From NCBI RefSeq assembly GCF_045037415.1, contig NZ_CP173438.1: 64,000 nt of DNA, one strand, 5' to 3'. This document shows, one piece after another, positions 58,209 through 58,917 of the stretch. The notes beneath the pieces are model-generated. The model saw only the letters and a list, made by a program, of their open reading frames with translations, did no database searches and was not told where the DNA came from. Source of the stretch: Escherichia coli (lineage in GTDB: Bacteria > Pseudomonadota > Gammaproteobacteria > Enterobacterales > Enterobacteriaceae). Position 1 is the stretch's first letter, and each line of letters starts with the position of its first letter. The position numbers were made by a program, and so were the translations under genes.

Positions 58209-58491
58209 ATGAAACGACTACAGGCATTCAAATTCCGGTTAAGACCAGGTGGTCAACAGGAGCGTGGAATGAGGCGCTTCGCAGGCGCATGTCGTTTCGT
58301 TTTCAATCGTGCTCTGGCGCTTCAGAATGAGAATCATGAGGCCGGTAATAAATACATCCCTTACGGGAAAATGGCTTCCTGGTTGGTTGAGTGGAAAAAT
58401 GCCACTGAAACGCAATGGCTTAAAGATTCGCCCTCACAGCCATTGCAACAGTCACTGAAAGACCCTGAGCGGGCTTACAAAAACTTCTTCC
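58209..58491 (+). pseudogene. tnpB: 5' fragment of tnpB (IS605-family RNA-guided nuclease gene), ~95 codons only
   Basis: MKRLQAFKFRLRP...LKDPERAYKNFF N-terminal TnpB signature, then read-through into antisense yedK. Confidence 0.7.
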
Positions 58492-58917
58492 GGCTTCGTC
58501 ACCACGCTCAAACGGTGTGCTACCTATCGCGGCTATAAAAACAGCTTGTCCATCAGCACGATAGATAAAATAAGGCTGCTTTTTGTCGCCTTCTTTTTTC
58601 CACTCAAACCAGCCATCGGCAAAACAGATTGCCCGACCATGTTGCCAGAGCGGTTTAAACATGTGACTGGTTGCGGCAGTTTCTACGCGGGCGTTAATCA
58701 GCGGCGGTTTATCCCACCATCCGGGAGCATATCCCCAGAAAACCGGATCCAGATGAAGGTGTTCATCACGTTCACTGAGCAGAAGGACTTTGGTTCCCGG
58801 CGCGACGTTGTATCTGCCAATAGGTTCGGGATCGTAGGGAATATCGCGTTCAATATCTTCCGCGAGAAACGCGAGGTAATCTTCACGCGTTTGGGATTGG
58901 GCAAAGCGTCCACACAT
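58420..58917 (-). CDS. yedK: SOS-response-associated peptidase YedK (SRAP/HMCES family), 3'-truncated: ~142 native residues then unrelated sequence
   Basis: MCGRFAQSQTREDYLA... start with catalytic Cys2; similarity to remembered YedK ends after ...STPFERGDEA. Confidence 0.75.
   Translation of the reverse strand: MCGRFAQSQTREDYLAFLAEDIERDIPYDPEPIGRYNVAPGTKVLLLSERDEHLHLDPVFWGYAPGWWDKPPLINARVETAATSHMFKPLWQHGRAICFADGWFEWKKEGDKKQPYFIYRADGQAVFIAAIGSTPFERGDEAGRSFCKPAQGLSVTVAMAVRANL

Follow-up and report, generated by a model that had tools for sequence, protein, structure and literature searches.

The fragments of yedK and of the IS609 gene tnpB that meet at this Escherichia coli locus are, with high probability, a pair of deletion pseudogenes; IS609 would have entered the stop codon of yedK, a later 1,211-bp deletion would have removed the facing ends of both genes, a second deletion would have cut into the element from its left side, and what remains would be dead fragments. 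The stretch of DNA analysed, referred to as the window, comprises 64,000 nucleotides of contig NZ_CP173438.1 (assembly GCF_045037415.1); the features of interest are listed in Table 1.

Table 1. Features of the yedK-IS609 locus and its surroundings (positions in the window).
Feature	Position	Strand	Description
emrE-ybcL-ybcM	55646..57505	+	DLP12-like prophage remnant in the fliE-yedK interval
tnpA-derived ORF	57662..58186	-	174 aa; IS609 only over 57830-58186; C-terminal ~56 aa are island DNA
Left junction	57827..57829		3-bp filler GAT; ~1.89 kb missing relative to 2017.17.01CC
Whole IS609 remnant	57830..58493		664 bp; ~95.5-95.8% identity to intact IS609 copies
IS609 tnpB stump	58209..58493	+	GTG at 58209; codons 1-95 of 402; homologous to IS609 tnpB
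tnpB stump ORF tail, non-native	58494..58538	+	antisense yedK (LRHHAQTVCYLSRL + stop)
Deletion junction	58491..58493		3-bp microhomology (CGG) between the tnpB and yedK sides
Chimeric yedK tail, non-native	58420..58490	-	23 codons (GRSFCKPAQGLSVTVAMAVRANL) + stop; antisense IS609 tnpB
yedK remnant	58491..58917	-	codons 1-142 + first base of codon 143
yedF and yedE, intact, upstream of yedK	59026..60461	-	collinear with K-12

The chimeric yedK is a 165 aa ORF on the minus strand that starts with an ATG at 58917, ends with a stop at 58420-58422 and has the N-terminus MCGRFAQ, with Cys2 directly after the initiator Met. In a base-by-base alignment nucleotides 1-427 of K-12 yedK (b1931) correspond to window positions 58917 to 58491, and similarity is gone beyond this point; the first 142 codons of the ORF are native, and the 23 between these and the stop are unrelated. 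The initial annotation had described a YedK-like translation that is native for ~142 residues, contains the catalytic Cys2 and breaks at ~58491, and had put the full length at about 222 aa; these values proved exact, as K-12 YedK has 222 aa and the breakpoint maps to codon 142/143. Residues 1-142 are 95.8% identical to K-12 YedK (PDB 6NUA/6KCQ/2ICU), from which they differ by L17F, R85H, F116Y, P125A, I126V and M128I; the remnant also shares with it the position downstream of yedE-yedF and, besides Cys2, the active-site residues Asn75 and Glu105. Residues 143-222 of the K-12 protein, which include Ile147, Thr149, His160, Asp161, Arg162, Pro164, Arg206 and Asn210, are absent, and their place is taken by the 23 residues from antisense tnpB, the DNA of this tail having ~96% nucleotide identity to antisense IS609 tnpB. 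The SRAP domain is incomplete; Pfam SRAP (PF02586) matches the ORF with E=1.1e-33 over profile positions 1-138 of 214 only, and the solved YedK chains (6KCQ, 6NUA, 2ICU) match at E ~1e-97 over residues 1-143 only. A tblastn search within the window yielded no further YedK or TnpB segment. Directly past the chimeric stop, within antisense tnpB, lies a terminator-like hairpin followed by a T-run (58401-58419, minus strand), which is probably fortuitous. A consensus scan gave no promoter-like sites and only weak terminator-like hairpins, which is not decisive for transcription, and an Rfam scan of 56500-60000 at E<=0.1 gave no match.

The K-12 locus is arranged as yedE-yedF-yedK-yedL-yedN'-intG'-fliE, while strain Nissle has an intact yedK followed by porin-ybcM-ybcL-emrE-fliE. 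Strains E1624 and 2017.17.01CC have the Nissle-type island together with a complete IS609 (~1.75 kb; L004 5560-7311 in E1624), the right end of which abuts yedK; in both, a full tnpB (1,209 nt) is convergent on a full-length yedK. By sequence comparison the element is inserted at TTAT^C within the yedK stop codon (K-12 L002 7488-7490), which turns the YedK terminus …PV* into …PVC* and gives a protein of 223 aa with one added cysteine. In the IS200/IS605 family the guide RNA is encoded in the tnpB 3' end and the right-end region; at the undeleted locus the TnpB guide would presumably correspond to the last yedK codons. The fliE-yedK interval is a variable prophage-remnant site, occupied in K-12 by yedL-yedN'-intG'; the emrE-ybcL-ybcM block (window 55570-57712), which has no ybcK, shows 90-92% identity to DLP12 prophage segments of K-12.

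The window is collinear with E1624 and 2017.17.01CC apart from two gaps; relative to this undeleted allele (fliE-emrE-ybcL-ybcM-(porin)-IS609-yedK) the flanks are 97-98% identical and the element has the same position and orientation. The right gap spans 1,211 bp from tnpB codon 95 to yedK codon 143 and cost tnpB 924 bp, yedK 245 bp and the element its right end; the left gap comprises the ~1.89 kb with the porin gene, the IS left end and the tnpA 3' end. The initial annotation had attributed the missing yedK 3' end and most of tnpB to one event, and at this point the intact relatives do differ from the window by that single block. The intact layout is considered ancestral because a deletion cannot be undone.

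That both genes break at the same coordinate had also been noted from the start and holds to within the microhomology, as yedK homology stops at 58491 and tnpB homology at 58493 with CGG as the 3-bp overlap; imperfect similarity extends to both sides of the CGG (CTTCTTCCGG versus ATCCTTCGG). Neither endpoint of the right junction is an IS end, and the end sequences TTAT and GTCAA are absent; for this reason illegitimate, microhomology-mediated recombination by the host is favoured over transposase action. Microhomology of at least 3 bp is expected at ~5% of random junctions, and the 3 bp alone point only weakly to a mechanism.

Of tnpB, the stump contains an N-terminal HTH_OrfB_IS605 domain as the sole domain detected; the region for RuvC and the zinc finger, the gene's 3' end and the IS right end are deleted. 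When compared to the intact IS609 copies of ST2747, E1624 and 2017.17.01CC, the 664 bp are ~95.6% identical; the starts of tnpA and tnpB diverge as they do there, with order and orientation unchanged. Missing are the left end (~116 bp), the right end, the tnpA helix that carries the catalytic Tyr and 76% of tnpB. The remnant aligns to L003 2681-3344, the intact element there spanning ~2565-4312, and the subterminal hairpins of the left and right end are therefore absent. The tnpA ORF contains the HUH region (PF01797 positions 2-106 of 121); the C-terminal segment of the intact copies, …GGAPISVIRQYIEQQ (…RQYIEQQ), is replaced in the window by unrelated sequence, and by analogy with IS608 TnpA this segment would carry the catalytic tyrosine. 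Because the second deletion took both the left end and the catalytic-tyrosine end of tnpA, the IS609 remnant cannot move and is an immobile fossil. PGAP calls the tnpA ORF (57662-58186, minus strand) an intact IS200/IS605 transposase (WP_001347174.1) despite the loss of the catalytic-tyrosine segment. The identity of the stump to intact copies is lower than that among the intact copies themselves, which are 98.6% identical at different loci, and lower than that of the flanks (97-99% between strains); this higher divergence could be due to neutral decay or to descent from a different IS609 variant, in which case the immediate ancestor could have carried another variant than the intact relatives sampled.

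The left deletion was compared over window 57817-57830, 2017.17.01CC L009 3240-5130 and Nissle L008 5138-6914; it took the DLP12-like porin gene (an 'ompC' paralogue) and its upstream region, along with the IS609 left end and the tnpA 3' end. E1624 was considered as the direct ancestor of this junction and rejected, since Nissle and 2017.17.01CC show that E1624 has a separate porin deletion; the latter begins within 10 bp of the left breakpoint of the window. Downstream of ybcM, a 20-bp unit (GTTGTTATTAAATCTAGTT) forms a tandem repeat in E1624 (L004 4933-5009) and is present as a single copy in the window (~57798-57816).

The scar is common. Many complete genomes, SK1144 and an O25b:H4 strain among them, match window positions 57500-59300 with 100% identity, and probes against 5,426 complete E. 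coli genomes found the right junction (301-bp probe centred on it) in 1,110 (~20%), the left junction in 1,116, the intact IS609-yedK joint in 1,084 and the deleted yedK 3' segment in 4,262. These counts leave room for, and are consistent with, absence of the 3' segment from all 1,110 junction genomes. A figure of 2,186 junction genomes was discarded as an over-count, the matching having joined pieces across the 1.2-kb gap. Carriers include strains labelled O25b:H4/ST131 and O104:H4, and the high frequency could be due to the intensive sequencing of a small number of clinical clones, ST131 among them. In the three junction-type loci aligned (ST131-like SK1144, O104:H4 and AVS0744) both junctions agree in every base while the 1.5 kb around them shows up to 1.9% difference, which indicates a single old origin. 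The O104:H4 and SK1144 loci share both junctions and also have identical FliC (WP_000079759.1), YedF, FliS and AmyA accessions, a hint that the scar may move together with a common flagellin (fliC) allele; AVS0744 combines this scar with another flagellin.

The history proposed for the locus would begin with the insertion of IS609, a member of the IS200/IS605 family, at TTAT^C in the stop codon, leaving tnpB convergent on yedK. A deletion would then have run from tnpB codon 95 to yedK codon 143 and cost yedK its last 80 codons, the ends most likely being joined at the CGG by illegitimate recombination; the second, ~1.89-kb deletion on the other side would have taken away the porin gene, the left end of the element and the end of tnpA that encodes the catalytic tyrosine. 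An assembly artefact, a general possibility near repeats, is refuted by the identical junction in 1,110 independent complete genomes. That the residues past 142 are a strongly diverged but homologous YedK tail, in which case the protein would be an intact short variant, deserves next to no credence. The ORF is indeed open for 165 aa and databases name the chimera as a functional protein; however, the identity of the tail to antisense tnpB, the alignments to K-12 and PDB sequences that stop at 142/143 and the truncated Pfam match refute this idea, which the initial annotation had named as the finding that would overturn its own claim. A direct insertion of IS609, whole or partial, into mid-yedK is also most improbable. 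Interruption of genes by IS elements is frequent and the sharpness of the junction would agree with it, but the junction lies inside tnpB, at codon 95, and not at an IS end, the right-end hairpin and the TTAT target are absent, the intact relatives carry the element at the stop codon, 245 bp off and in the same orientation, and the population counts fit the absence of the yedK 3' segment from junction genomes.

Deletion by the enzymes of the element, through aberrant ssDNA cleavage by TnpA or a TnpB-guided break with resection, is unlikely. Both flanking deletions have one endpoint inside IS609, the junction counts are near-equal and both junctions occur in all three loci examined, which would suit such an origin. 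The endpoints of the right junction nonetheless differ from the end and cleavage sequences of intact IS609 copies (TTAT / CCGGTG…GTCAA), and a TnpB-guided break would be expected where the element has been completely excised, at the empty donor site, with no internal part of the IS left behind. Likewise unlikely, and to a greater degree, is the expression of the truncated YedK fusion with a retained or new function, for instance as a dominant-negative or irreversible AP-site binder, under selection in ST131 and O104:H4; in its favour could be read that the frame is open, with start and upstream region native, that Cys2, Asn75 and Glu105 are retained, that the allele is frequent and that a terminator-like hairpin lies past the new stop. 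One junction lineage has a premature stop (Q7*), a DNA-contact residue is changed (R85H) among the non-synonymous substitutions, residues are lost whose single substitution abolishes ssDNA binding, and the frequency could stem from the sequencing of clinical clones, all of which speak against it. The reading as two deletion pseudogenes, most likely joined by host recombination, is preferred.

The likely effect on YedK can be judged from residues studied in the intact protein. Thr149, His160, Asp161, Arg162, Ile147 and Pro164 are located in the active-site pocket and the phosphate anchor, the anchor including Thr149 and Arg162 (PMC9436759, PMC6821365), and all six lie within the deleted 80 residues. 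T149A and R162A abolish ssDNA binding by YedK (PMC6821365). The evidence on His160 is mixed; according to a kinetic study cross-linking is ~10-fold slower with H160A and H160Q (PMC9436759), whereas cross-linking by H160A was 160% of wild type in an earlier single end-point assay (PMC6821365). Judged by sequence, the 165-aa fusion very probably neither binds ssDNA nor cross-links abasic sites, because Thr149, His160, Arg162 and approximately one third of the single SRAP domain are lost; the earlier suggestion that the product may be inactive is well supported in this respect. Some residual or altered activity is formally conceivable, given the open ORF, an upstream region that matches the K-12 arrangement and the retention of Cys2, Asn75 and Glu105.

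The remnant has continued to change. M128I is common to all three truncated alleles and R85H and P125A are common to the window and O104:H4, while L17F (window), G94D (O104:H4) and Q7* (AVS0744) are each specific to one allele; Arg85 contacts the DNA (PMC6821365), and the R85A substitution reduces binding ~8-fold. Though small in number, these changes are signs of relaxed constraint on the yedK remnant, and Q7* in AVS0744 is considered direct evidence that the stump is dispensable.

RefSeq/PGAP already labels the yedK and tnpB fragments 'incomplete; missing C-terminus', i.e. as pseudogenes, and the scar is an ordinary, widespread, already annotated pseudogene pair. The exact 165-aa chimera is present on at least 1,000 contigs in public protein sets, where it is named hypothetical protein in ST131 strain JJ1886, 'Abasic site processing protein' in UniProt, and elsewhere 'SOS response-associated peptidase family protein'. 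Neither the allele nor an E. coli yedK-null phenotype is described in any paper located by literature searches on yedK with ST131, IS609 with TnpB and in vivo phenotypes of yedK.

The overall significance of the scar is considered to be little. There is a slim chance that the O25b:H4/ST131 and O104:H4 lineages (~20% of complete genomes) are natural yedK-null strains with changed mutagenesis or stress tolerance, or that the stump is an altered AP-site binder; if true, the lost AP-site shielding might measurably alter mutagenesis or stress tolerance of pathogenic lineages. The label 'Abasic site processing protein', used for the chimera in UniProt and GenBank, and the call of an intact tnpA by PGAP overstate function, and this fli-region haplotype is easily recognised by its two fixed junctions. 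In about one fifth of the complete E. coli genomes yedK seems to be naturally knocked out, and these strains would provide ready material for tests of bacterial SRAP function in vivo.
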